This document shows positions 3,457 through 61,870 of a stretch of 64,000 bases of DNA, one piece after another. A model generated the notes under the pieces. The model saw only the letters and a program-made list of their open reading frames with translations, was not told where the DNA came from and did not search any database. The position numbers were made by a program, and so were the translations under genes. Origin of the DNA: an uncultured Bacteroidales bacterium (GTDB taxonomy: Bacteria; Bacteroidota; Bacteroidia; Bacteroidales; UBA11471); the NCBI GenBank assembly GCA_947625885.1, contig CANQQA010000004.1:1838-65837 (forward strand). The letters are read 5' to 3'. Positions within the stretch are counted from its first letter, which is position 1. The number at the start of each line of letters is the position of its first letter.

Positions 3457-3476
3457 ATCGTATTGTGTGTTTGATA

Positions 3477-5357: not shown

Positions 5358-5362
5358 GGCGT

Positions 5363-6952: not shown

Positions 6953-6974
6953 AAGTGTATGACTTTTTCATAGG

Positions 6975-8498: not shown

Positions 8499-8510
8499 AT
8501 CTGTAAAATG

Positions 8511-11792: not shown

Positions 11793-11807
11793 AGCGTATA
11801 TTATCTG

Positions 11808-27468: not shown

Positions 27469-27478
27469 GATGTTTCCT

Positions 27479-37490: not shown

Positions 37491-39722
37491 ATGGAGAAAA
37501 TGGAATATTTTTCCGACGCCGAACGAAAAGAGTTTTGGCCGCTTTATCGGGCGCTGTTCCGCTCGGCGCGCGCCCTTATCGGAGAAAAAGAATTTCTGTT
37601 TTTGCGCCGCCACATTTCCGACGCCGTGCAATCGGGCAGCTACCTGCGCGACGGCAACGGTATCAACCGTCTGCTGCGCGACATCGCCACCGCTCTCATT
37701 CTGTCGCAGGAAGTGGGGCTCGACCGCAGCACGCTGGCTGCCGTGCTCACCTGCAACCTCGTGGTGGAAAACCGGCTTGCGACCGAGCAGGTGGAGGAGC
37801 TTTTCGGCGCGGACTGCGTGAAAATCATTCGCGGACTCATCAAAGCCAACAGCCTCTACGCCAAGCAGGAAACGGTGCAGAGCGACAACTTCCGCAACCT
37901 GCTGCTCACTTTCGCCGAAGACGTGCGGGTAATCATCATCATGATTGCCGACCGGCTGTGCCTCATGCGCATGATAAACCATCACCCGAACAATAAATTC
38001 CGCGAAAACGTGGCTTACGAGGCGTCGTACCTCTACGCTCCCCTCGCCCACCGGCTGGGGCTGTACCGCATCAAGACGGAGCTGGAAGACCTCGCGCTGA
38101 AATACACCAACCGCGAAGCCTACGACCGCATCGCCCGCAAACTGAGCGAAACCAAAGAGTCGCGCGACCGGTACATACGCGCATTCATCGCCCCCATTCA
38201 GGAAAAGCTGACGGCGGCTGCACTGAAATTCGAGATAAAGGGTCGGGTGAAATCCATTTCGTCGATTCTGAACAAGATACGGAAACAGAACGTCGATATA
38301 GAGGGCATATACGACCTCTTTGCCATACGGGTGGTGCTCGACTCGCCGCCCGACCGAGAGTCGGCAGAGTGCTGGCACGTCTACTCCATCGTTACCGATA
38401 TGTACCGCCCCAACCCGAAGCGGCTGAAAGACTGGCTGTCGGTGCCCAAAAGCAACGGCTACGAATCGCTGCACATCACCGTGTGGGGTCCCGAAGACCG
38501 CTGGGTGGAGGTGCAGATACGCACCAAACGCATGGACGAAATCGCCGAGCGGGGACTCGCCGCCCACTGGAAATACAAGGGCATCAAAAGCGAAAAGGGG
38601 CTCGACGACTGGCTCAACAACGTGCGCGACGTGCTGGAATCGGGCGAGGGCGGTCCGCTGGAACTGATGAAAGAGTTTCGCATGGACCTCTACGACAAAG
38701 AGGTTTTCGTGTTCTCGCCCAAAGGCGACCTCTACAAACTGGCGAAAGGGGCGACGGTGCTCGACTTCGCCTTTCTGATACACACCCGCATCGGCTGCAA
38801 ATGTACGGGCGCGAAAGTGAACGGCAAAAACCAGACGATACGCTACAAACTCAAAAGCGGCGACACCATCGAGGTGATAACCGCGCCCGCCCAAACGCCC
38901 AAACAGGAGTGGCTGTCGATTGCCACTACCTCGAAAGCGCGAGTGAAAATAAAACAAGCCCTCAACGAAATTGAGCACAAAGAGGCAGATCTCGGGAAAG
39001 AGCTGCTCACCCGCCGTTTCAAAAACCGGAAAATCGAGGTGAACGAATCGGTGCTGATGAAGGTGATGCGGAAAATGGGTTACAAAACCGTTACCGACTT
39101 CTACTGCGCGCTGGCTCAGGAGAAAATCGACGCCAACGACGTGCTCGACAGCTACCACGAAACAGAGCGAAAAGAGAAAGAGAACGAAGAAAATGCCGAA
39201 AACCGCACGGCGGAAAATTTCGTCGCCGCACCGGTGCCCGTCGATGAAGCTGGCGAAGACGAAGTCGTCATCGACCAGAACATCAAAGGGTTGGATTACA
39301 AGTTAGCGAAGTGTTGCAACCCGATATTCGGCGACAAGGTGTTCGGCTTCGTTTCGTCACAGGGAAGCATCAAGATACACCGCACCGACTGTCCCAACGC
39401 CGAAAACCTGCGGACGCAGTTCGGCTACCGCATCGTCAAGGCGCGCTGGTCGGGCAAGCAGGGTTCGCAATACGCCATCGTGCTGCGGGTGGTGGGCAAC
39501 GACGACATCGGCATCGTAACCAACATCACTTCCATTATCTCCAAAGAGAAACGGGTGATGATGCGCAACATCTCCATCGACTCCGACGACGGACTGTTTC
39601 AAGGGCACATCACCGTACTCGTCGATGATACGACGGCACTCAACGCCCTGATAAAGAAATTGAAAACCGTCAAAGGGGTGAAAAACGTAACGCGCGAAAC
39701 GTTCTACCCGCAAAAAGATTGA
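37491..39722 (+). CDS. relA: Bifunctional (p)ppGpp synthetase/hydrolase (RelA/SpoT homologue)
   Basis: 743 aa with a hydrolase-domain region, a synthetase core (YESLHITVWGPEDRWVEVQIRTKRMDEIAERGLAAHWKYKG), a TGS domain (VFVFSPKGDLYKLAKGATVLDFAF) and a C-terminal ACT-like domain. Confidence 0.93.
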   Translation: MEKMEYFSDAERKEFWPLYRALFRSARALIGEKEFLFLRRHISDAVQSGSYLRDGNGINRLLRDIATALILSQEVGLDRSTLAAVLTCNLVVENRLATEQVEELFGADCVKIIRGLIKANSLYAKQETVQSDNFRNLLLTFAEDVRVIIIMIADRLCLMRMINHHPNNKFRENVAYEASYLYAPLAHRLGLYRIKTELEDLALKYTNREAYDRIARKLSETKESRDRYIRAFIAPIQEKLTAAALKFEIKGRVKSISSILNKIRKQNVDIEGIYDLFAIRVVLDSPPDRESAECWHVYSIVTDMYRPNPKRLKDWLSVPKSNGYESLHITVWGPEDRWVEVQIRTKRMDEIAERGLAAHWKYKGIKSEKGLDDWLNNVRDVLESGEGGPLELMKEFRMDLYDKEVFVFSPKGDLYKLAKGATVLDFAFLIHTRIGCKCTGAKVNGKNQTIRYKLKSGDTIEVITAPAQTPKQEWLSIATTSKARVKIKQALNEIEHKEADLGKELLTRRFKNRKIEVNESVLMKVMRKMGYKTVTDFYCALAQEKIDANDVLDSYHETERKEKENEENAENRTAENFVAAPVPVDEAGEDEVVIDQNIKGLDYKLAKCCNPIFGDKVFGFVSSQGSIKIHRTDCPNAENLRTQFGYRIVKARWSGKQGSQYAIVLRVVGNDDIGIVTNITSIISKEKRVMMRNISIDSDDGLFQGHITVLVDDTTALNALIKKLKTVKGVKNVTRETFYPQKD

Positions 39723-48574: not shown

Positions 48575-48683
48575 CGATTGTGAAATAAAAAACCAGTTAC
48601 AACTAATCCATATGAATATCATATATTATTTCGGCAAAAACGGGAAAATATTTCGATGCATAAAACAACAAAAATTCAATTCC

Positions 48684-49553
48684 ATGAAACAACAAATTCT
48701 CACATTCACAAGCGTCCTGTTCCTATGCTTTATCGGATACATGGACGTGGCAGCAGACGAATTCAACGAAGGAAATCTCCACTTCGACATCATTTCCGAA
48801 GCAGAGGCAACCGTATCCGTGAGTTTCAGATATTCAGCGCTGAACCCGTATGAAGGAGAGTGCCGTATTCCCCAAACGGCAACCTACCGAAACAAAACAT
48901 ATAAAATCGTTGCCATCGACGATTTCGCTTTCAAAGGATATATCGGACTAAGAATCCTTGTCATTCCCGAAGGGGTTATCCGCATCGGGAAAGGAGCGTT
49001 CTGGGGCTGCTGCAATCTGACCGATTTAACGATACCCTCCACCGTCGAAGAAATAGGAAGCTGCGCATTCAGGGAGTGCAGCCGCCTGTCGGCGATAAGC
49101 CTTCCCGACAAAACAATTAAAATTGGCGAAGAAACATTTTACAACTGTTCCCGATTGGAAAAAATATCGCTCGGCAACGTGCAGCACATCGGGCAAAATG
49201 CTTTCTATGGCTGCAAAAAGCTCAAAGAGCTGACCGTCTCCCCGAACAATTCCGTCTATACAGTGCAAAACGGTGTCTTATTTAGCGGAAACGGGAAAAA
49301 ACTGCTCGCCTATCCGCAAGCAAAATCCGGAGCTTACCAAGTACCCGAGGGTGTCGAAACAATCGCACGAGGGGCATTTGCCGAAAGCGCATTGACACGG
49401 GTGTCGATACCCGCCGGCGTCATCTACATCGGACTGAAAGCATTTTACGGCTGCGAACAATTGACGACCGTCGTACTGACGGAACGCACGCGAGTGGGAT
49501 ATAAATCGTTCTCCAATTGTCCGAATCTGAAAAGATTAACAATCGCCGAATAA
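48684..49553 (+). CDS. BspA-type leucine-rich repeat surface protein
   Basis: Repeats of about 23 aa of the form IPxxVxxIGxxAFxxCxxLxxIx (LRR_5/BspA type). The signal peptide begins at MKQQILTFTSVLFLC (ATG 48684). An in-frame upstream ATG at 48612 is possible but would bury the signal peptide. Confidence 0.78.
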   Translation: MKQQILTFTSVLFLCFIGYMDVAADEFNEGNLHFDIISEAEATVSVSFRYSALNPYEGECRIPQTATYRNKTYKIVAIDDFAFKGYIGLRILVIPEGVIRIGKGAFWGCCNLTDLTIPSTVEEIGSCAFRECSRLSAISLPDKTIKIGEETFYNCSRLEKISLGNVQHIGQNAFYGCKKLKELTVSPNNSVYTVQNGVLFSGNGKKLLAYPQAKSGAYQVPEGVETIARGAFAESALTRVSIPAGVIYIGLKAFYGCEQLTTVVLTERTRVGYKSFSNCPNLKRLTIAE

Positions 49554-49782: not shown

Positions 49783-49790
49783 TAATTTTG
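49783..49790 (+). promoter_or_regulatory. -7 box TAATTTTG upstream of the eight-gene Sus/thioredoxin operon
   Basis: Lies 30 nt upstream of the ATG at 49821. It overlaps the TTG (49788) that the ORF track used as a start, which argues against that start. Confidence 0.45.
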
Positions 49791-49820
49791 CGCCCGTCTT
49801 TTGAACACACACGAATAGTT

Positions 49821-52800
49821 ATGCTTAAAGAGAAAAAAGAAATTCTCGTCATTATCTTACTTTTTTATTTGCTTCCCTTTGCGACATATGCTCAACAGGA
49901 AAATAAATCGACACGTTCACTTTACGGCTGTGTAACAGACGAAAGTGGCGAACCCCTGCTCGGCGTATCGGTCATTCCGACAAATTTTCCGGCATACAGC
50001 ACCGTAACCGACGAAGAAGGCAAATATGTACTCCGGCATATACCCGCAGGAGCAAAATCTGTAACGTACAGACTATTGGGTATGAAAACGGAGGTGCAGA
50101 TGATTGGCGGTAAAGAAAAAATCGACGTCATCATGATTGAAGACGTAAATTCGCTGGAAGAAGTCATCATCACCGGCTATCAGAAAATCGACAAACGATA
50201 TTCGACAAGCGCCGTAACCTCCATGAAAATGGAAGACATAAACCTGCCGGGCGTTTCCAGCCTCGACCAAATGTTGGAAGGAAAAATTCCCGACATGATG
50301 ATCACGACAAACAGCGGCGAGGTAAATTCGACTCCGCGCTTGCGCATTCGCGGTACTTCGACACTGATAGGCAATCGTGAGCCGCTATGGGTGCTCGACG
50401 GTGTTGTGCTGACCGACCCTATCGAGCTGAGCCCCGACGTACTGAACGATCCCGACTACGTAAACCGCGTCGGTAATGCCATTTCGGGTATCAATCCGCA
50501 GGATATTCTCCGCATCGACGTTCTGAAAGATGCAGCCGCCACAGCTCTGTACGGTACTCGCGCCGCCAACGGCGTCATCGTGATAACGACAAAAAGCGGA
50601 CGTGACGGAAAGCCCATACTTGCCTATTCAGCGACTTTCACCGGCAGACGCCGCCCCCATTACACGGATTCAAAAATAAATCTTATGAATTCAAATGAGC
50701 GAATACAGTTCTCGCAATCGTTGGTAGAACAACACTACCGCTACCCGAGCAGCATGCCGTTGGTGGGGTATGAACATGCGTTGAGCAATCTGTATATGGG
50801 AATCTATACACAAGAGCAATTCGACGTGGCAGTAAATGAAATGGCAAGCATGAACACCGACTGGTTCGATATTCTATGCCACAATTCATTCTCGCATGAC
50901 CACAGCCTGTCGATTTCGGGAGGAAGCGAACGCATTCGCTACTACGCCTCATTAGGATATACCGGTCAGGACGACGTTATCAAAAACACCACCAACCGGC
51001 GCTATACCGGTATGGCAAAATTGAATATAGAGCTATTCAAGAATTTCGATGTATCGTTGAATATCAACGCATATCAAAATGACCGCAAGTACAACGCTCC
51101 CGAAATCAACCCCACCCAATATGCCTACAAGACATCTCGTGCCATTCCGGCTTACAATAGCGACGGCTCCTATTTTTACTATAAAAAATATGCCGGAGGT
51201 CAAGCCGGATATTTGAATTACAATATTCTGAACGAACTCGATAATTCGGGACAGAAACAAAATGTAAACAATATCATGGGTACGGTGAACCTGCATTACC
51301 AACCGCTTTCGTGGCTGCACCTGAACGGAATTTTGTCGTTGAACACGGCGTCGAGTTCGTCGGAAACCCTTTACGGAGAAAGCACGTTCCACAGTTCGAC
51401 GCTGCGCAAAAGCGAGGTCGGCGTCGTTCCCGACACCTACAGTGAAATGCCGTACGGAGGTGAATTTACGGTATCTACGACCAACACCAAAGGCTATATG
51501 GCACGTCTGCAAATAGATATCAACAAATATTTCGGAGCAGAAGCCAAGCACCAAATCAACTTCTCTCTCGGAGGTGAAGTTTCATCGACGGTCTACGAAG
51601 GTTACACCCGCACCGATCGTGGCTATTACCCCGACCGAGGTAAGACATTCGTGATAAACATACCGACGAGCTACGCCAACTATTACAGCTGGCTGAGCGG
51701 CAATGTGCCGACAATCACCGACCAAAAGACCAATCTGGTATCGGCATACGCCACCTTATCCTATATGTATAAAGACTTGTTCATACTGAACGGTAACACC
51801 CGCTACGACGGGTCGAACAAATTCGGCAGCCGCAGCAACGAAAAGCTCCTGCCCATTTGGTCGGTTTCGGGAAATGCCAATCTGAAAAGCATTGCAAGGA
51901 TAGATGCCGACCGAATCGACTTTCTTTCGCTCAAAGTGTCATACGGTGAACAAGGAAATATGCTCGACGGACAAACGCCTGTCATGGTCATCAAAAAAGG
52001 CACCATGGACGCCTACTACGGCGAAATGGTAACGACGGCAGCCTATTTCGCCAATCCCGATTTGGAGTGGGAAAAGACCCGTTCCGCCAATCTCGGTTTA
52101 GAGACGAGCTTCTTTGCCGGACGTCTGCAACTCGCCGTGGAGCTGTATCACAAACGTACTACCGACGCGTTCATGTCGAAAACCATCAGCGACGTAAACG
52201 GCTATACCTCTTATATTGTCAATTCGGGTACTATCGTAAACAAAGGTTATAACATATCTCTCTCGGCAACGCCGGTGAAAGTGCGCAATTTTTACTGGAT
52301 ACTGTCGGGCAATCTGTCGAAAGCATATAATAAGGTAACGACTGCTCCGGGCGGCGAAACGTATGAGTTGAGCGATTTTCTGAACGGCACCGCCGTGGTG
52401 AAAGGGCAGCCGGTAGGGACTTTTTACAGCTACCAGTTTGTGGGATTGAGCAGCGAAGACGGAGGTCCCATAATCGAAGACTGGGAAGACCGACAGAGCG
52501 AACTGAAAAACGCCGACAACTACGAAGCCTACACCAAAGTGCTCGTGCCAAGCGGTAAACGCGAACCCGACCTGACGGGAAGTATCACCAACACATTTAC
52601 TTACAGGCAATGGCGGTTGGGGGTAACATTCACCTACTCGTGCGGCGCCAGTACCCGTCTGTTCCGCCTGTTCGACGGATTCACAAGCGGCTATTCGAGC
52701 GAAGAAAATATCAGTCGCGATTTGATGAACCGCTGGCAGAAACCCGGAGACGAAGCGCACACGAATATTCCTTCCATCATGGGCAGCGGCAACAACAGCT

Positions 52801-53132
52801 ACTGGCTCTATAACGGTCATTGGAGCAACGGCGATTACTATACGGGACCTATCATCGCCTACGACGCATGGACGATGTACGATTATTCCACCGCCCGGGT
52901 GGTGAGCGCCGACTACGTGAAGTTGCAGAATGTATCTCTCACCTACGAATTTGCAAAAAAACTGCTCCGGAAATGCCGGCTCGGTCGTTTGGCGATTACC
53001 GCCTCAGCGACGAACCTCTACACGTTCTGCGACAAACGCCTGCGCGGACAGACGCCTACGCAGGGCGGTTTCTCGGAAATTCAACTCGGCGACACGCCCA
53101 CTTACAATCTCATGCTTAACATAGAATTCTAA
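49821..53132 (+). CDS. SusC/RagA-family TonB-dependent outer-membrane transporter
   Basis: Signal peptide (LLPFATYAQQ), CarbopepD_reg-like module (LYGCVTDESGEPLLGVSVIP), plug (LRIRGTSTL, VLDGVV), barrel, terminal F (NIEF). There is no STN/anti-sigma signalling extension. Confidence 0.92.
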   Translation: MLKEKKEILVIILLFYLLPFATYAQQENKSTRSLYGCVTDESGEPLLGVSVIPTNFPAYSTVTDEEGKYVLRHIPAGAKSVTYRLLGMKTEVQMIGGKEKIDVIMIEDVNSLEEVIITGYQKIDKRYSTSAVTSMKMEDINLPGVSSLDQMLEGKIPDMMITTNSGEVNSTPRLRIRGTSTLIGNREPLWVLDGVVLTDPIELSPDVLNDPDYVNRVGNAISGINPQDILRIDVLKDAAATALYGTRAANGVIVITTKSGRDGKPILAYSATFTGRRRPHYTDSKINLMNSNERIQFSQSLVEQHYRYPSSMPLVGYEHALSNLYMGIYTQEQFDVAVNEMASMNTDWFDILCHNSFSHDHSLSISGGSERIRYYASLGYTGQDDVIKNTTNRRYTGMAKLNIELFKNFDVSLNINAYQNDRKYNAPEINPTQYAYKTSRAIPAYNSDGSYFYYKKYAGGQAGYLNYNILNELDNSGQKQNVNNIMGTVNLHYQPLSWLHLNGILSLNTASSSSETLYGESTFHSSTLRKSEVGVVPDTYSEMPYGGEFTVSTTNTKGYMARLQIDINKYFGAEAKHQINFSLGGEVSSTVYEGYTRTDRGYYPDRGKTFVINIPTSYANYYSWLSGNVPTITDQKTNLVSAYATLSYMYKDLFILNGNTRYDGSNKFGSRSNEKLLPIWSVSGNANLKSIARIDADRIDFLSLKVSYGEQGNMLDGQTPVMVIKKGTMDAYYGEMVTTAAYFANPDLEWEKTRSANLGLETSFFAGRLQLAVELYHKRTTDAFMSKTISDVNGYTSYIVNSGTIVNKGYNISLSATPVKVRNFYWILSGNLSKAYNKVTTAPGGETYELSDFLNGTAVVKGQPVGTFYSYQFVGLSSEDGGPIIEDWEDRQSELKNADNYEAYTKVLVPSGKREPDLTGSITNTFTYRQWRLGVTFTYSCGASTRLFRLFDGFTSGYSSEENISRDLMNRWQKPGDEAHTNIPSIMGSGNNSYWLYNGHWSNGDYYTGPIIAYDAWTMYDYSTARVVSADYVKLQNVSLTYEFAKKLLRKCRLGRLAITASATNLYTFCDKRLRGQTPTQGGFSEIQLGDTPTYNLMLNIEF

Positions 53133-53134
53133 AT

Positions 53135-54721
53135 ATGAAACGATTGCAACATATATTCATCTGTTCGACGGCTCTCTTTCTCTGCCTGATGTCGGCGGCG
53201 TGCAATTTTCTCGAAGAGTATTCGCAAGATACCGATTATGTGCGCACGTGGAAAGATCTCGACGAGCTGTTAATCGGCGACTGCTATCTGCCGGTGTACG
53301 AATCCGATTATTTGGCATTTACCCGCACGCCCGCATCGTGGATACACCTGCTGGGCGACGAAATGGAGGAATCGCAGACGGGCTGGGACATGAGTACGTC
53401 GGCTTCCGGCGATTTCCGCGCCAATGCTTTCGGCTATTTCACATGGCAGCAGCGGGTGGGCATAAACGAGTCGGAGACCGAATATTTTGCCGAAAACGGA
53501 ACATGGACAAAATTCTACTACTGCATCAATGTTGCGAACAACATCATCACTTCCGTAGAGAATGTACCCTGCAACAGCGACGACGAGCGGCAGGGCGTGC
53601 ACAAGGTCAAAGGCGAAGCGCATTTCCTGCGCGCCTTTTACTACTTCTGGTTGGCAAACCTTTACGGGAAACCTTACGACCCGCAAACTGCCGCCGCCGA
53701 CTTATGCGTGCCGCTGAAAGTGAGCGACAAGGTGGAAGACCGTAAATTCTCGCGACAGACCGTCGCCGAAATATATGCACAGATACTTTCCGACCTCGAC
53801 ATTGCCGAGCGGGAATTGGAGCTTTACTCCACACCGAAAGTGAGCATCTATCGAGCCGACTCCACTGCCTGCCACCTGTTGCAAAGCCGGGTGTATCTGT
53901 ATATGCAGCAATGGGAAAAGGCTGCCCTGTATGCGAAAAAGGTCATGCAGGCACACCCTGCTCTCTACAATTTCAACACGGCTACCGGCAAATTTTCCGT
54001 GAAAGACAATCCGGAAAATCTTTTCTCGATGGGCGGCAACGATGTCCACAAACTTTTCGACTACGCGTGCCAGTCTTTCTCCGTCAGCCGAGAGCTTTAC
54101 GACACCTATACGAGCAGCGACCTGCGCAAGACGCGTTGGTATTGGAAGAAAGGCGACTTTGCCGGTCCTATCCGCACGACCACCAACCCCACCTATTACA
54201 ATTATGACCCCACAAAAGGCGAGTACTATTCGTATTCTTATGCCGACAAAAGCCGTCAGGAAGAGGTGTCGGGACAATTTCTCATGCGCTCGGCAGAGGC
54301 TTACCTGAACTATGCCGAAGCCGAAGCCTATCTCGGTCATGACGCCGAAGCGCGAAACACACTCAATACGCTGCGTGCCTACCGCTTTTCAAGCGACAAC
54401 AGCGGAGTGAATGTTTCCGGAAGCGAACTAATCACCGCCATTCGCCGCGAACGCCGTCTGGAACTCGCCCTCGAAGGGCACCGCTGGTTCGACCTTCGCC
54501 GGTATATGGTATGCGCCGTGCAGCCTGAGAGTCACTCCATCACCCACGAATGGACTTATTACTCCGACTATCTTTCCTGTAATGCGGTAAAGCGGTACCG
54601 TTTCGTGCTCGAAGAAAACGACGAAGCCTATACCCTGCCTATCCCGCAGGAAGAGCTGGACTTCAATACCGGAATGCCTAACAACCCACATCCTTACCGC
54701 GAACATACCCAAGTATTATGA
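53135..54721 (+). CDS. SusD/RagB-family outer-membrane lipoprotein
   Basis: Lipobox (LMSAAC). SusD core motifs (AHFLRAFYYFWLANLYGKPY, MRSAEAYLNYAEA, ERRLELALEGHRWFDLRR). Lies 2 nt after the SusC-like gene. Confidence 0.9.
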   Translation: MKRLQHIFICSTALFLCLMSAACNFLEEYSQDTDYVRTWKDLDELLIGDCYLPVYESDYLAFTRTPASWIHLLGDEMEESQTGWDMSTSASGDFRANAFGYFTWQQRVGINESETEYFAENGTWTKFYYCINVANNIITSVENVPCNSDDERQGVHKVKGEAHFLRAFYYFWLANLYGKPYDPQTAAADLCVPLKVSDKVEDRKFSRQTVAEIYAQILSDLDIAERELELYSTPKVSIYRADSTACHLLQSRVYLYMQQWEKAALYAKKVMQAHPALYNFNTATGKFSVKDNPENLFSMGGNDVHKLFDYACQSFSVSRELYDTYTSSDLRKTRWYWKKGDFAGPIRTTTNPTYYNYDPTKGEYYSYSYADKSRQEEVSGQFLMRSAEAYLNYAEAEAYLGHDAEARNTLNTLRAYRFSSDNSGVNVSGSELITAIRRERRLELALEGHRWFDLRRYMVCAVQPESHSITHEWTYYSDYLSCNAVKRYRFVLEENDEAYTLPIPQEELDFNTGMPNNPHPYREHTQVL

Positions 54722-55617
54722 AAAAGATTTCTTACCTCGTACCGTTCTTGGCAATCATCGGGCTATCCGCCTGTACGGAAGATGCCGTAGTGCCAGACCT
54801 GCAAGACGTAACCGTACCTTTCATGCCGGCGCCCGACGACCAAAGCGAGGAGGCGCAGCTCCGACGGGAGTTTCACGACCGATACGGCTCGTACCTGCTT
54901 TTCAACGATACCCTGCAATATCGGGAAACCGGCAATGACGCCAACGGCGACCTGCACTATTTCACCGAAGTGCTCCAACTCGAATACAACGTGGGTATGA
55001 ACGTTTCCGCTGCCGAGTCGTTCACCTATACCCTGCTGAACGACATGGAGTCCAAACACAAGGCATTGCAGTACCTCGAAGAAGAGATACTCATACATTT
55101 TTCCGGCAAGATAAAACCGTTTTCATGGCTTTTGGTCGATAAAATCAGCCGCAAACACACCAACAATATCTCCTCGCCGTATGCCGCCACGGGCGAAAGA
55201 GCCATCGTCATTGCCTGCAACGTGCTTTTCACGCTCAATGAAGCACAGAAAGAGCAGTTTACGGCACAGGTCATGAACACGATCATCAGCAAGCCCGTCA
55301 ACGACAACATCGAAATGTTCGATAACTTTTTGTCGGTGAGCGAGGCATACTACAACGGCACGTTCACCGATCCCGGCTCTACGACGGAAAACATGAAAAT
55401 ACTCAACGAGGCAGGATTCATCTGCCGCGGTCGGAGTTACGGCAGAGACGCCAACGGTATCTATCCCGATCAGGAACTCGACCTCAGCGCCTTCGCCCGC
55501 AAAGTCATAGCGAACGATGCGGAGCAAGTGCAGAAAGAGTATCAGAATTATCCTCTGGTCGTGCAAAAATGCGACCTGATGCGCACCACCTTAAAAACAC
55601 TCGGATATGTGGAATAA
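54718..55617 (+). CDS. Hypothetical lipoprotein (no recognisable family)
   Basis: Lipobox (IIGLSAC). Start overlaps the SusD stop (ATGA). It occupies the position usually taken by a surface glycan-binding protein. Confidence 0.68.
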   Translation: MKKISYLVPFLAIIGLSACTEDAVVPDLQDVTVPFMPAPDDQSEEAQLRREFHDRYGSYLLFNDTLQYRETGNDANGDLHYFTEVLQLEYNVGMNVSAAESFTYTLLNDMESKHKALQYLEEEILIHFSGKIKPFSWLLVDKISRKHTNNISSPYAATGERAIVIACNVLFTLNEAQKEQFTAQVMNTIISKPVNDNIEMFDNFLSVSEAYYNGTFTDPGSTTENMKILNEAGFICRGRSYGRDANGIYPDQELDLSAFARKVIANDAEQVQKEYQNYPLVVQKCDLMRTTLKTLGYVE

Positions 55618-56248
55618 TATAAACAGTCTTTTGCCCGGACGGAAAAATCCGTTCCTGCTTTTATTTGCCGCCCTGTTCGTCGTGTCTTGCTCCGACGAGA
55701 ACGACTTTGTCATTGAAGAACCGACGGCGCAAAGCGTATTCGTGGACGAACGCGACAGCACGGAATACCGCTACGTGCATATCGGCGGACTCGACTGGAC
55801 GATAGACAATCTTGCCTACGATCTCGGCGACCTCGATTTAAGCCGCGTGTATCAATCGGTCGATGACGATGCGAAACAGGTTTACACGACGACAAAACGC
55901 GCCAAATACGGTATGCTCTACTCCTACTCGGGTGCCGTACAGGCGGTACCGGAAGGGTGGCGGCTTCCCACCGACGAAGACTGGGCGGCGTTGGAGGCAT
56001 CGCACGGCTACCTCTCCGAGTCTTTCAACCTGCTCTACGGAGGTTATTACACCAAAAACAAGTACGCCGCGGCAGATAACGGCAACCGTTTCATGGGGTC
56101 GTGGGCTTACTTCTGGACGGTGAGCGGCGACTCCGGCAAAGACGGACAATACTATTTCATTCGCAAAAAATTCTACGACAGAGACTACATGGAGCGGCTC
56201 AGCATCGAGCCGGAGGCTTATTACCTCAGCGTAAGACTCGTACGATAA
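55607..56248 (+). CDS. FISUMP-domain lipoprotein (Fibrobacter succinogenes major paralogous domain, TIGR02145-like)
   Basis: Lipobox (LFVVSC). Pattern DERDSTEYRYVHIGGLDWTIDNL ... YGMLYSY ... VPEGWRLPTDEDWAAL ... AYFWT ... LSVRLVR follows the FISUMP consensus (RDGxxY..V.IG.Q.W..NL / GxLY.W / CPxGWxLPsxxEW / SVRCV). Confidence 0.78.
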   Translation: MWNNINSLLPGRKNPFLLLFAALFVVSCSDENDFVIEEPTAQSVFVDERDSTEYRYVHIGGLDWTIDNLAYDLGDLDLSRVYQSVDDDAKQVYTTTKRAKYGMLYSYSGAVQAVPEGWRLPTDEDWAALEASHGYLSESFNLLYGGYYTKNKYAAADNGNRFMGSWAYFWTVSGDSGKDGQYYFIRKKFYDRDYMERLSIEPEAYYLSVRLVR

Positions 56249-56279
56249 GAATTTCTATTATTTCCAAAACCATACCATC

Positions 56280-57719
56280 ATGAAAAAATTGAATGTTTTA
56301 CTGCTGACGCTGCTCTGCTGCGCTTCCTGTTCCCGCACCCCGCAGGCAACTTTTACGGGCAGCATCGGCAATTACGACCCCGACGACGTTTTATTCATCT
56401 ACGTACAGGGTCTCGAACAGGCGGGTTACGATACGCTCGACATCGACGCCAAGGGGAATTTCACCTACACCGTCGCATTGGAAGAGCTTTCGGAAGGGAT
56501 TGTTTTCGCCGGCAGCAAGCAGGACGAAAACGGCAGCGACCGCAGCAACTCTTTCTGCGTACTCCTTCAACCGGGTAAAACGGTTCATGCCGACATCGCT
56601 CTCCGTCCCCTGTCCGTGAAATTCTCCGGCGACGAAGCCGCCAAATCGACTTACGCCAACCAATTCTACCAAGCCTTTTCGCTCTCCCCGTCTTTCACCG
56701 GCGACACGCTGGCAGCCGTTCACCCGACCTTTGCCGCCGCCGAAGCATTTGTCGACGGCGAAATTGCGAAAATGAAGGCGACCGTCGAGACCATCACCGA
56801 CAAGACTTTTGCGGAGGAGGCGCTCAGCGCCCTCGCCGATCGGCGTGAAAGCGCTCTTTTCGACTACGCCATCGGCAGCGAAAAGATAGGTCGCGCCATG
56901 TCGTCCGATGCCGATTTCGGCAAGTTCGTCGCCGACATCGACCCGAACGACACCCTGCAAATCGGTCGGATTTACAATTACATCGAATGGTACTACACCG
57001 CTCACCCGGGTCTTTACCTGCCCTTGTCCGCCGGAGGCGCCAAAATCAAATACCTCACCGAATACACGCAAAACCAAGATGTGCGCAACCAAATGGCAAA
57101 CCTCTATCTCGTGAACATTCTTTTCCTCGCTTCGTTCGGACTCGATACGTCCAACAGTGAATTCAAAGATCTGTACGAACAGTATCTCGCCGTTTCCACC
57201 GACACCACCTACACGAAGTTCGTCAAAGAGAGTCTTGCCGGCATGGCAGCGCAGGAGCCCGGCAAGGAGCCTATCGACTTCACACTCGAATATGCCGACA
57301 GCACGCCGGTGCAGTTTGCCGCGCTGATGGGCAGCGGACACGTTACCTACGTCGATTTCTGGGCGACATGGTGCGGTCCCTGCAAAGCGGAAATACCGCA
57401 CCTCGACAAAATGGCTGTCTACTACAAAGAGAAAGGCTTGCTCTACTCCGCCCAAAATCCGAAGGGTAAAGTGCGCATCATCTCCATCTCTATCGACGCC
57501 GACCGTCAGGCATGGCTCGACAAAATCGCGAAAGACGCCCCGATATGGGAGCAGTGCATCGTACCCGACATCGAAAACTGCGCAGGGCTTACGGGTTACA
57601 ATATCCAAAGCATACCCCGATTCATGCTTTTCGATGCCGACGGCAAACTCTACCGCTCGTCCGCTCCGCGTCCGAGCGAGGTCGAAACCCGCGCCCTTAT
57701 CGACAGCATGATACGGTAG
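56280..57719 (+). CDS. TlpA-like thiol-disulfide oxidoreductase lipoprotein (N-terminal beta-sandwich, helical linker, thioredoxin domain)
   Basis: Lipobox (LLCCASC). The C-terminal thioredoxin fold has the active site YVDFWATWCGPCKAEIP and a cis-Pro region (IQSIPRFMLF). Confidence 0.85.
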   Translation: MKKLNVLLLTLLCCASCSRTPQATFTGSIGNYDPDDVLFIYVQGLEQAGYDTLDIDAKGNFTYTVALEELSEGIVFAGSKQDENGSDRSNSFCVLLQPGKTVHADIALRPLSVKFSGDEAAKSTYANQFYQAFSLSPSFTGDTLAAVHPTFAAAEAFVDGEIAKMKATVETITDKTFAEEALSALADRRESALFDYAIGSEKIGRAMSSDADFGKFVADIDPNDTLQIGRIYNYIEWYYTAHPGLYLPLSAGGAKIKYLTEYTQNQDVRNQMANLYLVNILFLASFGLDTSNSEFKDLYEQYLAVSTDTTYTKFVKESLAGMAAQEPGKEPIDFTLEYADSTPVQFAALMGSGHVTYVDFWATWCGPCKAEIPHLDKMAVYYKEKGLLYSAQNPKGKVRIISISIDADRQAWLDKIAKDAPIWEQCIVPDIENCAGLTGYNIQSIPRFMLFDADGKLYRSSAPRPSEVETRALIDSMIR

Positions 57720-57726
57720 CTCGCAC

Positions 57727-58857
57727 ATGCGGAAGTTTATCGGCAGCATATTATTCCTCGTTGCGGCAGGAGCGGCGCAGGCAGCCGAGAGCGACAGCAT
57801 CGCTCCGGCATTGCCCACCGACGTCTATGCCGACTACATGGTCGTTACCCCGGGCGACGGCTTCACCTCCATGCTCGGACACGCCGCCATTCGTATGTAC
57901 TGCCCTTCCGCAGGTCTCGACTACTGCTTCACCCACAAGTCGCCCGAGATAGGGAACGAATTTACCGCCATGACTCTCCGCACCCTCCTTTCCGGTCTCG
58001 TGCCGGAGCCTACCGCCATGTTCGTCGACGACTACCGGAGCGAAGGACGCGGCATCAGCCGCTACCGGCTGCGCCTTACCGTAGAGGAGGCACGCCGGCT
58101 CTGGAAACTTCTCGACGACGAAGTGGCTCGGGGATTGCACCGGCACATGGACTACATACGCAGCGGCTGCGCCCAAGAGGCGTTTGCCATGATACAAAGA
58201 GCGGTCGCCGGTCGAAACATCGACTTCGACCGTCTTGCCGACGAATCCATCGCCGACGATACCCGCCGCCTGATTTCGGCACACTACCTCAACCTACGGC
58301 AGTGGAAAGACTTTGCCGCCTACACTCTTTACGGCGGCTCTGTCGACGAAACCGTGCAAGGCGCCGAGAAGTTCATCATGCCCCTCGACATAGCGAACGT
58401 ACTCGAAAAAGCCGGATTGGCAGAGGCGCCCGAAACCGTCTGCACACCCGCTGCCGAAAACACGCCTCCGGCGGTTACGCCGCTTCTGTGCGCAATCATT
58501 TTCTTCGTGTTGTGCCTCCTGCCGCTGCAAAACCGCATCGTCAACCGCACGCTCTCGGTCACCCACTTTCTCGTAGGCATACTCATCGCCTATATGGTGT
58601 TCATCGCCCGTACCCCCGGCACCGAATGGAATTGGCTGGTACTCATTTTCAATCCCGTTCCGTTCCTCATTTCGCCGTGGGCAGGTCGCCGCACCCACAT
58701 GGCATACTGCGGCATACTGTTTGCCTTTTTGGTGTTCATGCTTGCGTGCCTCGGACGTATGTTCTGCATCGAACAGGTGCTTATCGTAGCGGGCGTATTT
58801 ATACGAACTATTTACAAAACATTTAATATTAACCTTCTAAAATCAAAAGTAAAATGA
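57727..58857 (+). CDS. Membrane protein with a DUF4105-like periplasmic domain and about 5 C-terminal TM helices
   Basis: Signal peptide. The segment SMLGHAAIRMYCP resembles the DUF4105/Lnb N-terminal GH(S/T)xxR core. The C-terminal third is hydrophobic, with five Cys inside predicted TM segments. The family name is tentative. Confidence 0.55.
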   Translation: MRKFIGSILFLVAAGAAQAAESDSIAPALPTDVYADYMVVTPGDGFTSMLGHAAIRMYCPSAGLDYCFTHKSPEIGNEFTAMTLRTLLSGLVPEPTAMFVDDYRSEGRGISRYRLRLTVEEARRLWKLLDDEVARGLHRHMDYIRSGCAQEAFAMIQRAVAGRNIDFDRLADESIADDTRRLISAHYLNLRQWKDFAAYTLYGGSVDETVQGAEKFIMPLDIANVLEKAGLAEAPETVCTPAAENTPPAVTPLLCAIIFFVLCLLPLQNRIVNRTLSVTHFLVGILIAYMVFIARTPGTEWNWLVLIFNPVPFLISPWAGRRTHMAYCGILFAFLVFMLACLGRMFCIEQVLIVAGVFIRTIYKTFNINLLKSKVK

Positions 58858-60224
58858 AAAAAATCTGTTCATTTCTCTTTTTCGTCCTTCTCTGCTCCAA
58901 CGCTTTTGCAGAGGGCGACGGTAATTACTATTGGTTCTACGACAGAGTAGAAGCCGCCCCTACGGGCAAAGGCGTCGTCTACGCTGCCGAAAGCAGCGAC
59001 CCCCAACCGGCAGAGAACGATTACCAAGAGTCCGTTGAGGTGAAATTTTCCGCACAAGGTTACCCCGACGACGATATATACGCATGGGCAAAACCTGCCG
59101 AGGGGTATCAGTTTGCCGGCTGGTTTTCTTCGGCTACCGACGAAACGACGCTGGAAGAACTGCTATCCGATGCCGATTCCGCTGCAACACTCGATGTTAC
59201 CACAGCTTATGTTTCCGAAGACGAATCTGCTAATGCATGGGGATTCACACCCGATACTACTTTTTACGGCATCTTCACCAAGGTTGTCGTTCAAGCTCCC
59301 GATGTCGATTGCGTAGGGTCGGCAACCATCAGCAAAGTAGCCAATGACACGGGCGACGAAATAACGCTCACCGCCACGCCCGCCAATGAAACCGTAAAAT
59401 TCGATTATTGGCTCGATTCCAAAGGAAACAAGGTAGAAACCAACCCCTATACATTCACGGTATCCGACGTAGAAACCTATAAAGCGCACTTCTCGGGCGA
59501 CTCCATCATCACCATCGACTTCGGCGAAGGCAAATACATTCCGTTCTCCAACATCTATTCGGCAAATTTTACATCGGGCATAACCCAATATTCCTATATT
59601 AAAACGACGTCTTTTACGGAAAACGGACATACCTACAACTACGACGAAACGTCAAACACGTGGGCATATTATAATGAGGAGAATAGTTTCATAGAATACC
59701 CCGGTACTCCCCAATTAGAATCCACCTACGCACTTATAGAGTGGGCGTCCTACATTGATTATGATGCAGGCTCCGGCATCATACTCTACGGCGAAGGCGA
59801 ACAGTACATCGTTTTCCACAAAGACGAAGACCCCAATCCGTACCCCAGTTTCATAGTAGGCACCGCTGAAGGCGAAGTGAATATTGCCGAGCTGCCCGCT
59901 GCCGATGAAGAAGGCAACGCCATCACCTATTACACGTTCGACGGCACAGATTTCGTGAAAGCGACCACCGGTATCGTGAAGCAAGGTGAGTGCTATCTCG
60001 CCCTTGACGCATCACACCACCCGCTGCCCGACAAAATTCCTTTCACGGAAGACGTTGAAAAATATGAAGAAATGGCAGGCATAGATGCCCCGACGGTCGA
60101 TGCTCCCGCCGCTCTTGCCGCTCCCGCTGTGAAAGGCATCTACACCATCGACGGCAAACGGATTGCCCGACCGATCAAAGGCGCCATCAACATCATCGAC
60201 GGAAAGAAAGTATTTGTCAAGTAA
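58854..60224 (+). CDS. Secreted protein with two divergent InlB-B-repeat-like modules
   Basis: Signal peptide (LLCSNAFA). Modules contain AEGYQFAGWFS and ITLTATPANETVKFDYWLDSKGNKVETNPYTFTVSDVETYKAHF. The C-terminal strand-rich tail is GIYTIDGKRIARPIKGAINIIDGKKVFVK. Start overlaps the upstream stop (ATGA). Confidence 0.62.
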   Translation: MKKICSFLFFVLLCSNAFAEGDGNYYWFYDRVEAAPTGKGVVYAAESSDPQPAENDYQESVEVKFSAQGYPDDDIYAWAKPAEGYQFAGWFSSATDETTLEELLSDADSAATLDVTTAYVSEDESANAWGFTPDTTFYGIFTKVVVQAPDVDCVGSATISKVANDTGDEITLTATPANETVKFDYWLDSKGNKVETNPYTFTVSDVETYKAHFSGDSIITIDFGEGKYIPFSNIYSANFTSGITQYSYIKTTSFTENGHTYNYDETSNTWAYYNEENSFIEYPGTPQLESTYALIEWASYIDYDAGSGIILYGEGEQYIVFHKDEDPNPYPSFIVGTAEGEVNIAELPAADEEGNAITYYTFDGTDFVKATTGIVKQGECYLALDASHHPLPDKIPFTEDVEKYEEMAGIDAPTVDAPAALAAPAVKGIYTIDGKRIARPIKGAINIIDGKKVFVK

Positions 60225-60236
60225 TTGGCATATATC

Positions 60237-61316
60237 ATGAAAAACCTTTTTTCAATTTTATTTTTGACAGTCTGCTGTGCCGTGTCGGCACAGCAGACTT
60301 TCTGCATACACGGCAAGGTGAAAGGGCTTAAAGCCGGCGTGGAAATCGCGGTACTGTCTCACGAAAACACAGGCGAAACCATCGCCACCGCCACCGTGCA
60401 GAAAAACGGGAAATTCTTCATCGAAGGTCATGTAGACCACCCGACTCTCTGCACCCTCACCACCACCAACCTCGATATGCTGGGCGACAAAATCGCCCAA
60501 AACAACTACAAAGACGTGAAATGGACTTACACACCCGTCTTCGTCGACAACTCCGACATGACCATCGAGGTGCCCTCTTACGACCTCGTGCCCGATGCTC
60601 CGGAGTCGGAACACTTCCACATCACGGGCAGCGCCACACACCGCGAATACTGCGAGTACACGGCACGCTGCGGCAGCCACGACCCGAAATTCGACGACGC
60701 CATACGGTTCATTGCGGAGCACCCGACGTCGGTGGTTTCGGTCTACGCCGCCAACCTTATGCTTACCAACGGCTACAACCTCACCGCCGAACAGATACAC
60801 GAATTGCAAACGACCATCACCGGCTGCCCCGCCGACACGGCGCGCTACAACCTTTTCGTGCGCCGGGCACACATCGCCGAGCTGACCGCCGTAGGCAATC
60901 CTATCGTGGATCTCGACCTCATCACCCCCGAAAATGCACGCCGACAGCTCGCCGACATCGTCAAGGAGCACGAAGGGAAATACCTGCTCATCGACTTCTG
61001 GGCATCGTGGTGCGGCATCTGCCGGGCTTCGACGCCGTACATCAAAGTCATGTACGACAAGTACGACCGCAGCCGTTTCGACGTCATTTCCGTCTCCTGC
61101 GACGAGAACGACAACGCTTGGCGCACCGCCATGGAGAAAGACCAAATGGCGTGGAAACAGTACTGCCTCACGCCCGAAGGGTACAAACGTTTTTTCGAAT
61201 GCTACCAGCTCATCGGCGTTCCTTACTACCTGCTCGTCTCTCCCGACGGCAAAGTCATCGGAAATCCGTCGGGCACCGAAGCTATCGAAACACTGGTTTC
61301 GCAGGCGTTGGAATAA
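60237..61316 (+). CDS. TlpA-like thiol-disulfide oxidoreductase with an atypical CGIC active site
   Basis: Signal peptide (MKNLFSILFLTVCCAVSAQQ), a DUF4369-like N-terminal beta-sandwich (FCIHGKVKGL), and a thioredoxin domain with LIDFWASWCGICRAS and a cis-Pro region (LIGVPYYLLV). The track start at 60225 is TTG. ATG at 60237 is preferred. Confidence 0.85.
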   Translation: MKNLFSILFLTVCCAVSAQQTFCIHGKVKGLKAGVEIAVLSHENTGETIATATVQKNGKFFIEGHVDHPTLCTLTTTNLDMLGDKIAQNNYKDVKWTYTPVFVDNSDMTIEVPSYDLVPDAPESEHFHITGSATHREYCEYTARCGSHDPKFDDAIRFIAEHPTSVVSVYAANLMLTNGYNLTAEQIHELQTTITGCPADTARYNLFVRRAHIAELTAVGNPIVDLDLITPENARRQLADIVKEHEGKYLLIDFWASWCGICRASTPYIKVMYDKYDRSRFDVISVSCDENDNAWRTAMEKDQMAWKQYCLTPEGYKRFFECYQLIGVPYYLLVSPDGKVIGNPSGTEAIETLVSQALE

Positions 61317-61337
61317 CCCGCCGTTTTCTCAAAAAAC

Positions 61338-61369
61338 AAAGGCATACAGAGTTTTCCGTATGCCTTTTT
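61338..61369 (+). terminator. Rho-independent terminator closing the eight-gene operon
   Basis: 10-bp stem AAAGGCATAC / GTATGCCTTT (61338-61347 and 61358-61367) running into TTTTT. Lies 22 nt past the stop at 61316. Confidence 0.75.
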
Positions 61370-61426
61370 CTTATCCCCTTGCACGAGATTTTGCCGACAA
61401 ACTCTCGCCGGATAATCATTTTATAT

Positions 61427-61434
61427 TACCTTTG
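61427..61434 (+). promoter_or_regulatory. -7 box TACCTTTG upstream of the GtrA-like gene
   Basis: Lies 17 nt upstream of the ATG at 61451. Confidence 0.35.
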
Positions 61435-61450
61435 CGTGTCGATTACGCAC

Positions 61451-61870
61451 ATGGACGAGCAAGGAAAACCGAAAACGAAAAAAGAGATTTTGCGCTTCTG
61501 CATCACGGGAGCCACCATCACGGCGGTGCTGTACGGCATTTACTACGCCATGCTGTACGTGGGGTTCAGCGTCGATATTTCTTTTACGACCGGATTTGTG
61601 GTCAGCTTCATCTGCAACTTCCTGCTCACCAACTACTACACGTTCCACACCCCTATCGACGCGGAGAACGCCCTGCGCTTCACCCTGTGTCAGGCGCTCA
61701 ATTTTCTGATGCAGTATGCGGCGTTGAAACTTTTTGTGGCGCTCGGGGTACCGGAGGAGGTTGCCCTCGTGCCCGTGTGGGTCGTCATTTTCCCTATCAA
61801 TTTCCTGCTGATGCGCAAGCTGCTGCGGTCGCAGCGGTTCCGCATTCACAAAACGAAAAAGAATCCGTAA
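61451..61870 (+). CDS. GtrA-family membrane protein
   Basis: 139 aa with four TM helices and the GtrA pattern (LRFCITGATITAVLYGIYY ... NFLLTNYYTF). It is only the 3' third of the 449-aa track ORF. The upstream part overlaps the thioredoxin gene out of frame. Confidence 0.82.
   Translation: MDEQGKPKTKKEILRFCITGATITAVLYGIYYAMLYVGFSVDISFTTGFVVSFICNFLLTNYYTFHTPIDAENALRFTLCQALNFLMQYAALKLFVALGVPEEVALVPVWVVIFPINFLLMRKLLRSQRFRIHKTKKNP

Follow-up and report, generated by a model that had tools for sequence, protein, structure and literature searches.

Among solved structures, the transporter pair nearest to the system studied here is ButCD of Bacteroides fragilis. ButCD is the import route of BfUbb, a ubiquitin-like toxin whose C-terminal disulfide was reported to be crucial for antagonism, and its authors proposed that the pair, with a zinc protease next door, serves protein-related nutrition (PMC11467351). 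RagAB of Porphyromonas gingivalis (PDB 6sli and related entries), likewise SusCD-type and without carbohydrate-active enzymes (CAZymes), has peptides as its cargo. A sizeable minority of the SusCD loci of gut Bacteroidota lacks CAZymes, and for B. fragilis GS077, 12 of the 59 SusCD loci carry the label 'function unknown' (PMC11467351). Here we describe a sharply defined and strongly conserved family of such loci. Its reference member lies in a 64,000-nucleotide stretch of DNA from an uncultured Bacteroidales bacterium (hereafter the window; positions 1,838 to 65,837 of contig CANQQA010000004.1, assembly GCA_947625885.1). Eight genes, named g1 to g8 in their order, encode a SusC-like transporter, a SusD-like lipoprotein, a family-specific lipoprotein (g3), a lipoprotein of the FISUMP (Fib_succ_major) family, a first thioredoxin-fold protein, a DUF4105 membrane protein, a secreted protein with an InlB B-repeat domain and a second thioredoxin-fold protein. 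All component families are already known; their combination is a conserved, uncharacterised form of SusCD uptake locus. A literature search found no functional study of a SusCD-thioredoxin operon.

The comparison with described systems starts with the transporter. The closest solved structure to g1 was ButC (8ypt/8ypu; 337 bits, E 3e-99), ahead of the next-best SusC, which is the best glycan SusC (197 bits), and of RagA (154 bits). The closest one to g2 was ButD (8ypt_A; 120 bits, E 1e-33). Since the identity to g1 is only moderate, we do not regard g1 and g2 as ButCD orthologues. Both loci are free of CAZymes, and the protein imported by ButCD is small, folded and disulfide-bearing. However, the sole accessory of the ButCD locus is the upstream zinc metalloprotease, and it has none of the g3, FISUMP, thioredoxin or Lnb-like genes; conversely, no zinc metalloprotease is encoded beside g1 to g8. 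RagAB is more distant by sequence, comprises two genes, depends on secreted gingipains and has no periplasmic redox module. The locus also falls outside the canonical definition of a polysaccharide utilization locus (PUL), i.e., SusCD plus CAZymes, since no glycoside hydrolase (GH), polysaccharide lyase, carbohydrate esterase or sulfatase was detected in g3 to g8. These searches with Pfam and NCBIfam reproduced all domain calls of a preliminary description of the locus and, in line with it, matched no glycoside hydrolase, lyase, esterase, sulfatase or classical peptidase family in the eight genes.

A six-gene core conserved across Bacteroidales

Loss of the gene order in related genomes had been set beforehand as an outcome that would count against the preliminary description. 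Instead, the order was found in five species-level genomes, about ten further contigs and 80 metagenome loci. The five genomes, all metagenome-assembled and assigned to Bacteroidales/Bacteroidaceae from rabbit, roe deer and rumen, came from a g6-based scan with one genome per species. They are 52-97% identical and have the same gene order, one of them without g5. Even contigs with g3 members of only 30-40% identity still show the order SusC-SusD-g3-FISUMP-thioredoxin(s). SusD homologues of about 50% identity led independently to the same architecture, including an exact match to the B. ovatus SusD SDH06790.1 / WP_081352632.1. On the contigs carrying this sequence, the genes are arranged as extracytoplasmic function (ECF) sigma factor, FecR, SusC with an STN domain, SusD, a g3-like gene, FISUMP and two thioredoxin genes. 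The operon family is known from rumen, rabbit and human-gut Bacteroidales, with a six-gene, ECF-regulated version in B. ovatus.

We counted the neighbors of g3 in a metagenome scan that was seeded solely by a g3 peptide pattern and returned 80 loci, 52 of them non-redundant. The denominators given here are the loci with enough flanking DNA, and thioredoxin genes were counted within 8 kb downstream of g3. SusD was located directly 5' of g3 in 62 of 62 testable loci, SusC-SusD was present upstream in all 46 loci, and a FISUMP gene followed directly 3' in 72 of 72. At least one thioredoxin-fold gene was found downstream in 40 of 42 loci and at least two in 33 of 42, in agreement with the earlier view that SusCD-thioredoxin adjacency is recurrent. 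A g6-like (DUF4105) gene was present in 30/42 loci and a g7-like (InlB-like) gene in 34/42. The recurrence of this arrangement far exceeds chance. Within the operons of the 80 loci no additional recurrent gene (peptidase, permease, DsbD) was observed, the recurrent ones being the queried families only. The genes past the last thioredoxin are unrelated housekeeping genes.

Thus, the eight genes form one unit in the window, as had been described, while the minimal conserved core is smaller. It consists of six genes: SusC, SusD, g3, FISUMP and the thioredoxin pair. The genes g6 and g7 are a frequent accessory module, and the eight-gene form of the window is one arrangement of the set. In two loci, the g6-like gene is located 5' of SusC (L076, 2034-3098; L077, 3739-4677) and not between FISUMP and g7, which indicates that the g6 module can shift its position within the operon. 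The absence of a regulator noted in the preliminary description applies to the window, where no regulator family was matched in the eight genes by Pfam or NCBIfam and none upstream. It does not apply to the family, since a co-directional ECF sigma/FecR match is found upstream in 23 of 39 loci. The SusC proteins of those Bacteroides-type loci that were checked with Pfam contain an STN domain.

The only two loci without thioredoxin genes, L090 (2743-4269) and L096 (4142-5668), have a sulfatase-like ORF in their place. There, g3 and FISUMP are followed by this open reading frame (ORF) and then by a second SusC gene, as if the locus had been cut short or recombined and joined to a glycan PUL.

The two thioredoxins can be told apart by their active sites, and the order WCG[I/M]C followed by WCGPC was observed in 30/42 loci. 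The order of the window is rarer: here the WCGPC protein (g5) precedes g6 and g7, and the WCGIC protein (g8) comes last. Nearly all loci have a WCG[I/M]C orthologue, and most have a WCGPC-type partner. In locus L016 (14729-16873), a WCGMC-type and a WCGPC-type thioredoxin are fused into one protein of 714 amino acids. The two thioredoxins are a fixed pair, evolutionarily tied to the SusCD locus. As a side observation, L016 has a g7-like gene but none of the g6 type; two Porph_ging (GLPGLI) genes and a further TonB-dependent receptor come after it.

Layout and products of the eight genes

The coordinates are collected in Table 1. All eight genes are encoded on the plus strand and tightly packed. 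From g1 to g8, the junctions measure +2, -4, -11, +31, +7, -4, and +12 nt, according to the ORF calls and the junction sequences; the co-directional packing and the three overlaps of the preliminary description were thereby confirmed. Two of the overlaps are exact ATGA sequences, at 54718 (g2/g3) and at 58854, the start of g7. The value of +12 nt for g7/g8 assumes the ATG start of g8 and becomes 0 nt with the TTG start. The promoter-like box and the hairpin thought to bracket the block were likewise both present. The box (TAATTTTG) may act as the promoter, judged from its sequence; a TAnnTTTG box lies 17-52 nt 5' of SusC in seven related loci (L001-L007). The hairpin was the strongest stem between 47.5 and 62 kb in a stem scan and is a candidate terminator. 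The scan itself placed it on the minus strand, and T-runs border the stem on both strands. No Rfam family was matched in the leader or the eight-gene block (47.5-62 kb, E up to 1); the one match in this interval is at chance level and lies outside the operon. Rfam thus offered no riboswitch or leader RNA from which the ligand could be read. Three long ORFs of 295-475 amino acids, 56391-57818 (-), 60258-61145 (-) and 60521-61870 (+), overlap g5 and g8 on the opposite strand or in another reading frame. Their translations are rich in Arg and Gly and resemble low-complexity sequence, and they are most likely non-coding shadows of the true genes.

Table 1. Features of the SusCD-thioredoxin operon (positions within the window; aa, amino acids)
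Feature	Position	Strand	Remarks
TAATTTTG, TAnnTTTG-type -7 box	49783-49790	+	38 nt 5' of SusC ATG; putative Bacteroidota promoter box
g1, SusC/RagA transporter, 1103 aa	49821-53132	+	ATG; upstream TTG at 49788 also open
g2, SusD/RagB surface lipoprotein, 528 aa	53135-54721	+	PF07980 + PF14322
g3, family-specific lipoprotein, 299 aa	54718-55617	+	without Pfam/NCBIfam family
g4, FISUMP (Fib_succ_major) lipoprotein, 213 aa	55607-56248	+	PF09603, TIGR02145
g5, exported thioredoxin-fold protein, 479 aa	56280-57719	+	WCGPC at 364-368
g6, Lnb_N/DUF4105 membrane protein, 376 aa	57727-58857	+	PF13387
g7, secreted protein with InlB B-repeat domain, 456 aa	58854-60224	+	PF18998
g8, exported DUF4369 + thioredoxin-fold protein, 359 aa	60237-61316	+	ATG (TTG at 60225); WCGIC at 258-262
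Eight-gene block, g1 to g8	49821-61316	+	
Intrinsic-terminator-like hairpin	stem 61338-61367, with tail to 61376	+	13 bp stem, then TTTCTT

The first two products are a typical SusCD pair. The full-length model TIGR04056 (600.9 bits; cut-off 368.25), the signature TIGR04057 (58.7 bits; cut-off 46.2) and the Plug (PF07715) and barrel (PF00593) domains identify g1 as a SusC/RagA TonB-dependent transporter. It carries an N-terminal CarboxypepD_reg domain and no STN domain according to Pfam, and its orthologues in related loci are 55-81% identical. The assignment of g2 to SusD/RagB is based on matches to PF07980 (102.9 bits) and PF14322 (72.7 bits), together with its lipoprotein signal and its start 2 nt past the stop of g1. 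Its lipobox LMSAC leads into a conserved C-x-x-FLEEYSQD motif, and the SusD proteins have two conserved non-lipid cysteines, C50 and C460.

The lipidated cysteine is followed by acidic stretches in g3 (C-TEDAVV) and g4 (C-SDENDF) as well. Acidic residues after the lipobox are what we take to be the Bacteroides surface-export signal, which would place SusD, g3 and g4 on the cell surface. No family or relative could be assigned to g3 by sequence in Pfam, NCBIfam or the PDB, and its homologues form 98 clusters, all unnamed. Its AlphaFold2 (AF2) model (pLDDT 85.6) had no significant counterpart in a Foldseek search of the PDB (best E 0.11, TM-score <0.25), so the model points to a novel fold. We also considered a zincin metallopeptidase, as Peptidase_Mx1 of Pfam matched weakly in 2 of 46 g3 members (E 1.6e-4). 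However, the fold matches to ERAP, selecase, lethal factor and BT_4244 all had a probability <0.1 and a TM-score <0.25, and HExxH occurs in none of the 98 homologues. This reading was therefore dropped.

The FISUMP assignment of g4 is supported by both PF09603 (80.9 bits, cut-off 33.9; E 2e-22) and TIGR02145 (70.7 bits, cut-off 41.65). The FISUMP domain belongs to a class described as C-type-lectin-fold targets of diversity-generating retroelements, and the family description quoted in the same work has conserved cysteines suggesting extracellular disulfides (PMC5758913). The membership in this class argues for a surface ligand-binding scaffold. In contrast to the family description, the lipidated cysteine is the only one in g4, and no conserved Cys column was found across 13 g4 orthologues. 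The same holds for g3: besides the lipidated residue, neither protein has a conserved cysteine. Therefore, the thioredoxins are unlikely to be there to serve g3 or g4. PDB sequence searches with g3, g4, g6 and g7 gave no matches.

Both thioredoxin-fold proteins are of the TlpA/ResA/DsbE type, i.e., exported, with a thioredoxin fold and a CXXC motif, and with Thioredoxin_8 and Redoxin above the cut-off. In Pfam, g5 matched Thioredoxin_8, Thioredoxin, Redoxin and AhpC-TSA, preceded by an N-terminal region of about 320 amino acids without family; its best PDB sequence matches were Bacteroides 'putative thiol-disulfide oxidoreductases' (2lja, 4k9z) and ResA. In g8, DUF4369 (PF14289) is combined with the thioredoxin families, and the best PDB matches were 2lrn/4grf, 2lja and 3fkf. 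Neither protein reaches the models for the named subfamilies. The scores of g5 and g8 were 47 and 54 bits for the ResA equivalog NF002854 (cut-off 170), 38 and 46 bits for TlpA NF047696 (230), and 27 and 25 bits for DsbE TIGR00385 (123). The site WCGPC of g5 is the classical reducing thioredoxin site. Both N-termini are signal peptides that lack the acidic surface-export motif of SusD, g3 and g4, which indicates that g5 and g8 are periplasmic and act downstream of the transporter. Next to the three clear lipoproteins g2, g3 and g4, g5 is possibly a fourth.

The protein encoded by g6 had been described as DUF4105-like with multiple transmembrane segments. The domain call stood (PF13387, formerly DUF4105 and now Lnb_N, E 1e-5; in addition a weak 5TMH_Lnb match), but the description fell short, as g6 is a distant paralogue of Lnb with a predicted papain-like domain and the conserved residues Cys148 and His52. 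Its predicted topology comprises an N-terminal signal or transmembrane segment, a soluble domain and C-terminal transmembrane helices. Lnb (BT_4364) is the Bacteroides lipoprotein N-acyltransferase, the domain of which was described as NlpC/P60-like with an essential C148 (PMC11573676). That g6 is the true Lnb of this organism was ruled out by the score on the Lnb equivalog NF051878 (70.3 bits, cut-off 550) and by the clade structure. Ten of the nearest representatives of g6 scored 50-128 bits on this model and are all non-Lnb paralogues. In a profile search of 1.84 billion representatives (2032 matches with E up to 0.001), the g6 clade was a tiny one within a large DUF4105 family and comprised three sequences above 470 bits, followed by a drop to 244. 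In a set of 48 diverse DUF4105 proteins, every member has C148 and D65, and at least 90% have H52; the equivalence of C148/H52 in g6 to H49/N66/C148 of Lnb is one of residue position and not of direct alignment. With the AF2 model (pLDDT 82.5), the top Foldseek matches were YiiX (2if6; probability 1.00, TM-score 0.64 to the target), TseH (6v98; probability 0.99) and CLN5, with E-values >0.001. The modelled periplasmic domain thus resembles a permuted papain/NlpC-P60-like fold, and g6 is a probable membrane-anchored cysteine acyltransferase or hydrolase and not a known peptidase.

The adjacent g7 matched PF18998 (E 3e-8; Flg_new_2/InlB B-repeat in Pfam) and has a signal-peptidase-I site; it is not a lipoprotein. 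In-frame fusions of g6-like and g7-like proteins occur in L007 (11631-13883; 750 amino acids), P0171 (846 amino acids) and P0132, which suggests that g6 and g7 act together. Taken together, the residues Cys148, His52 and Asp65, the predicted papain-like fold and the fusion fit a periplasmic enzyme at the inner membrane, and the fusion of g7 behind an inner-membrane protein argues for a periplasmic g7. A role of g7 as cargo of the type IX secretion system (T9SS) was rejected, since no Por_Secre_tail-type match (E up to 5) was found in g7 and three orthologues. In the L007 fusion, only one or two hydrophobic segments separate the halves, and the old signal peptide of g7 has apparently become a transmembrane segment. 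The short, conserved C-terminal tail of g7 (residues ~425-456) reads KGIY..DG[KR]... and ends in ..DGKKV.VK, as it does in the 750-residue protein of L007 and in P0147 (676-727). It resembles the ends of some secreted Bacteroidales proteins and matches no T9SS sorting-domain model.

Upstream of the operon, a gene for a BspA-type leucine-rich-repeat protein (48612-49553, +; PF13306, E 6e-44) lies between an OmdA/YdeI gene and the SusC promoter. It is missing in L001, a relative with 97% identity in which OmdA and SusC are separated by about 290 nt, compared to about 1390 nt here, and the GC content around it falls to 0.46. The gene looks like a strain-specific insertion outside the operon. A second SusCD-type locus at 325-14282 (-) contains SusC-like genes (328-3480 and 8514-11792), a SusD gene (6978-8498) and three genes for fasciclin-domain proteins (3480-5357, 5366-6952 and 11811-14282). 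No CAZyme was detected among its scanned genes, and it may be another non-canonical uptake locus. The contrast to CAZyme-rich loci elsewhere in the window, which had been pointed out before, is real: GH106 alpha-L-rhamnosidase-like and GH2 genes were found (24682-30346, -). A RelA/SpoT gene is located at 37491-39722 (+).

Possible cargo and function

The reading that we favor, to which we give somewhat less than an even chance, is that a disulfide-containing peptide or small protein enters by TonB-dependent import and is then reduced in the periplasm. The preliminary description had proposed capture, import and reductive processing of a disulfide-containing ligand, a view that the present results support in part. 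Gene content, predicted topology signals, conservation, gene fusions, retained active-site residues and the affinity of the transporter to ButCD were observed; what is imported, whether it is reduced and what g6 and g7 do is inferred. At the surface, SusD, g3 with its putative novel fold and the lectin-fold FISUMP protein g4 would capture a non-glycan ligand, which SusC would move inward using TonB energy. In the periplasm, g8 (WCG[I/M]C, DUF4369) and g5 (WCGPC) would reduce the disulfides of the cargo, presumably with electrons from a DsbD/CcdA-type donor encoded elsewhere. At the inner membrane, g6 and g7, where present, might then perform acyl transfer or amide/thioester cleavage on the cargo. 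The idea gains indirect support from the nearest solved SusCD pair, ButCD, which imports the disulfide-bearing BfUbb, and from the reducing site WCGPC.

Several points weigh against this reading. Neither a classical peptidase nor an inner-membrane permease nor a DsbD/CcdA donor was detected in the locus by Pfam or NCBIfam. The similarity to ButCD is only moderate, and the native substrate of ButCD is itself unproven. With its lectin-type fold, the FISUMP protein could have a glycan or glycoconjugate as its ligand. Bacteroidales have many TlpA-like proteins, and these may look after the redox state of the envelope in general. The N-acyltransferase activity of Lnb, the characterized relative of g6, points to lipoprotein maturation and not to cargo processing. 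Moreover, about a quarter of the loci do without g6 and g7, so the core function does not require them. In 2026, a preprint described TonB-dependent transporters beside a DUF4369 thioredoxin lipoprotein in Muribaculaceae and speculated on iron uptake or oxidative-stress defence for such transporter-linked thioredoxins (PMC13404670).

A more specific version of import and reduction is a dedicated route for disulfide-locked, protease-resistant peptides or mini-proteins, taken up by a ButCD-like SusCD utilisome with two new surface-binding proteins, with a relay of the two thioredoxins and subsequent processing by g6 and g7. We regard this as possible but rather doubtful, and the same reservation applies to a dietary, host or microbial origin of its cargo. 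Such a route would open Cys-rich protein nutrients and reduced sulfur to gut Bacteroidales and would be the first function for SusCD-thioredoxin loci.

The first rival explanation, which we consider unlikely, is that the thioredoxins and the Lnb-like g6 service the machine or the envelope, so that the cargo could be anything. Dsb-type reductases are known to act on periplasmic enzymes with a single cysteine, and the thioredoxins might keep Cys148 of g6 or the two conserved SusD cysteines (C50 and C460) reduced. Alternatively, g6 and g7 might give the four lipoproteins of the operon, three clear ones and possibly g5, a special N-acyl form. The latter would fit the only characterized DUF4105 protein, the N-acyltransferase Lnb (PMC11573676), whose Cys and His appear to be retained in g6. 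However, g6 scores far below the Lnb model, its fused partner g7 is no lipoprotein, and g3 and g4 lack conserved cysteines to be maintained. Furthermore, thioredoxins are present in 40/42 loci compared to 30/42 for g6, and guarding g6 therefore cannot be their main role. A housekeeping redox function also gives no reason to expect the genes to stay strictly beside a single SusCD clade.

Still less probable in our view is a small cargo, such as a thiol or disulfide metabolite, a cofactor or a metal: glutathione, other gamma-glutamyl-Cys peptides, cystine as a source of reduced sulfur, or haem/iron. This cargo would be reduced by the thioredoxins, and an amide or thioester bond in it would be the target of the papain-fold g6. 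Bacteroides need reduced sulfur, and enzymes of the papain/CHAP superfamily act on glutathione conjugates and gamma-glutamyl bonds. The DUF4369 thioredoxin lipoproteins encoded beside transporters in Muribaculaceae were speculatively linked to iron uptake and oxidative stress, and HBP35 of P. gingivalis, as cited in the same work, combines a thioredoxin domain with haemin binding (PMC13404670). But among DUF4369 proteins we found an iron-response figure for BT_0239 only, a 1.6-fold change. Oligomers or macromolecules are the usual ligands of SusCD systems that have extra surface lipoproteins, and the nearest solved relatives carry proteins or peptides. In addition, there was no upstream riboswitch in Rfam, and no HmuY-like or siderophore component in Pfam or NCBIfam.

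A glycan or glycoconjugate locus, in which FISUMP and g3 bind the glycan, the CAZymes are encoded elsewhere and the thioredoxins act on a disulfide-linked aglycone, for example a fragment of mucin or another glycoprotein, is a little more improbable again. ECF sigma/anti-sigma control is typical of host-glycan PULs in Bacteroides and is found in 23/39 loci of this family; the C-type-lectin-fold class of FISUMP and the otherwise CAZyme-rich window point in the same direction. This explanation has to contend with the lack of any CAZyme match in the eight genes, with the lack of any recurrent extra gene across the 80 loci, and with a SusCD pair that is nearest to the non-glycan ButCD and not to glycan utilisomes. 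Finally, neutralization of BfUbb-type, bacteriocin-like proteins that hijack a ButCD-like transporter would fit the entry of BfUbb by ButCD and its crucial disulfide (PMC11467351) as well as the affinity of g1/g2 to this pair among solved structures, but it is highly improbable, as it leaves the dedicated surface proteins g3 and g4, the ECF-type induction and the native role of the transporter unexplained and there is no sign of toxin or immunity genes nearby.

If import followed by reduction is correct and the thioredoxins act on the cargo, no earlier case would be known in which TonB-dependent uptake is coupled to the reduction of disulfides in the periplasm. The recently discovered Lnb/DUF4105 family of enzymes would also gain a second role, one outside housekeeping. 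The six-gene, ECF-regulated version is present in B. ovatus, which is cultivable and genetically tractable, and therefore the question is directly testable.

Relation to known systems

Lnb and g6 share the DUF4105/Lnb_N periplasmic domain with transmembrane helices and, judged by position, apparently the conserved Cys, numbered C148 in both, and His; TseH is among the nearest folds. Unlike Lnb, g6 reaches 70 of the 550 bits required by the equivalog model and falls into a small clade of its own. Its gene lies within a SusCD operon, and g7 is its partner or is fused to it.

The thioredoxins g5 and g8 resemble the TlpA, ResA, CcmG and Etrx types (1jfu, 1st9, 4hqz; 2lja, 2lrn, 3fkf, 4k9z) in being exported proteins with a thioredoxin fold and a CXXC motif. 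They differ from them by their extra N-terminal domains, DUF4369 in g8 and the region of about 320 amino acids without family in g5. Furthermore, they are linked as a WCG[I/M]C and WCGPC pair to a SusCD importer and not to genes for cytochrome c, copper centres or Msr. The lysosomal thiol reductase GILT reduces imported disulfide-locked proteins in a degradative compartment for processing. An operon that imports and reduces its cargo would be a bacterial counterpart of GILT-assisted lysosomal proteolysis, alike in concept only, with no homology and in another compartment.

With classical Sus systems and PULs (utilisomes 8aa4, 5t3r), the operon shares the SusC-SusD core, the extra surface lipoproteins, the operon layout with a TAnnTTTG promoter box and, in some versions of the family, ECF sigma/anti-sigma control. 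In contrast to these systems, it encodes no GH, lyase, esterase or sulfatase, and its accessories are redox and acyl-enzyme proteins instead.

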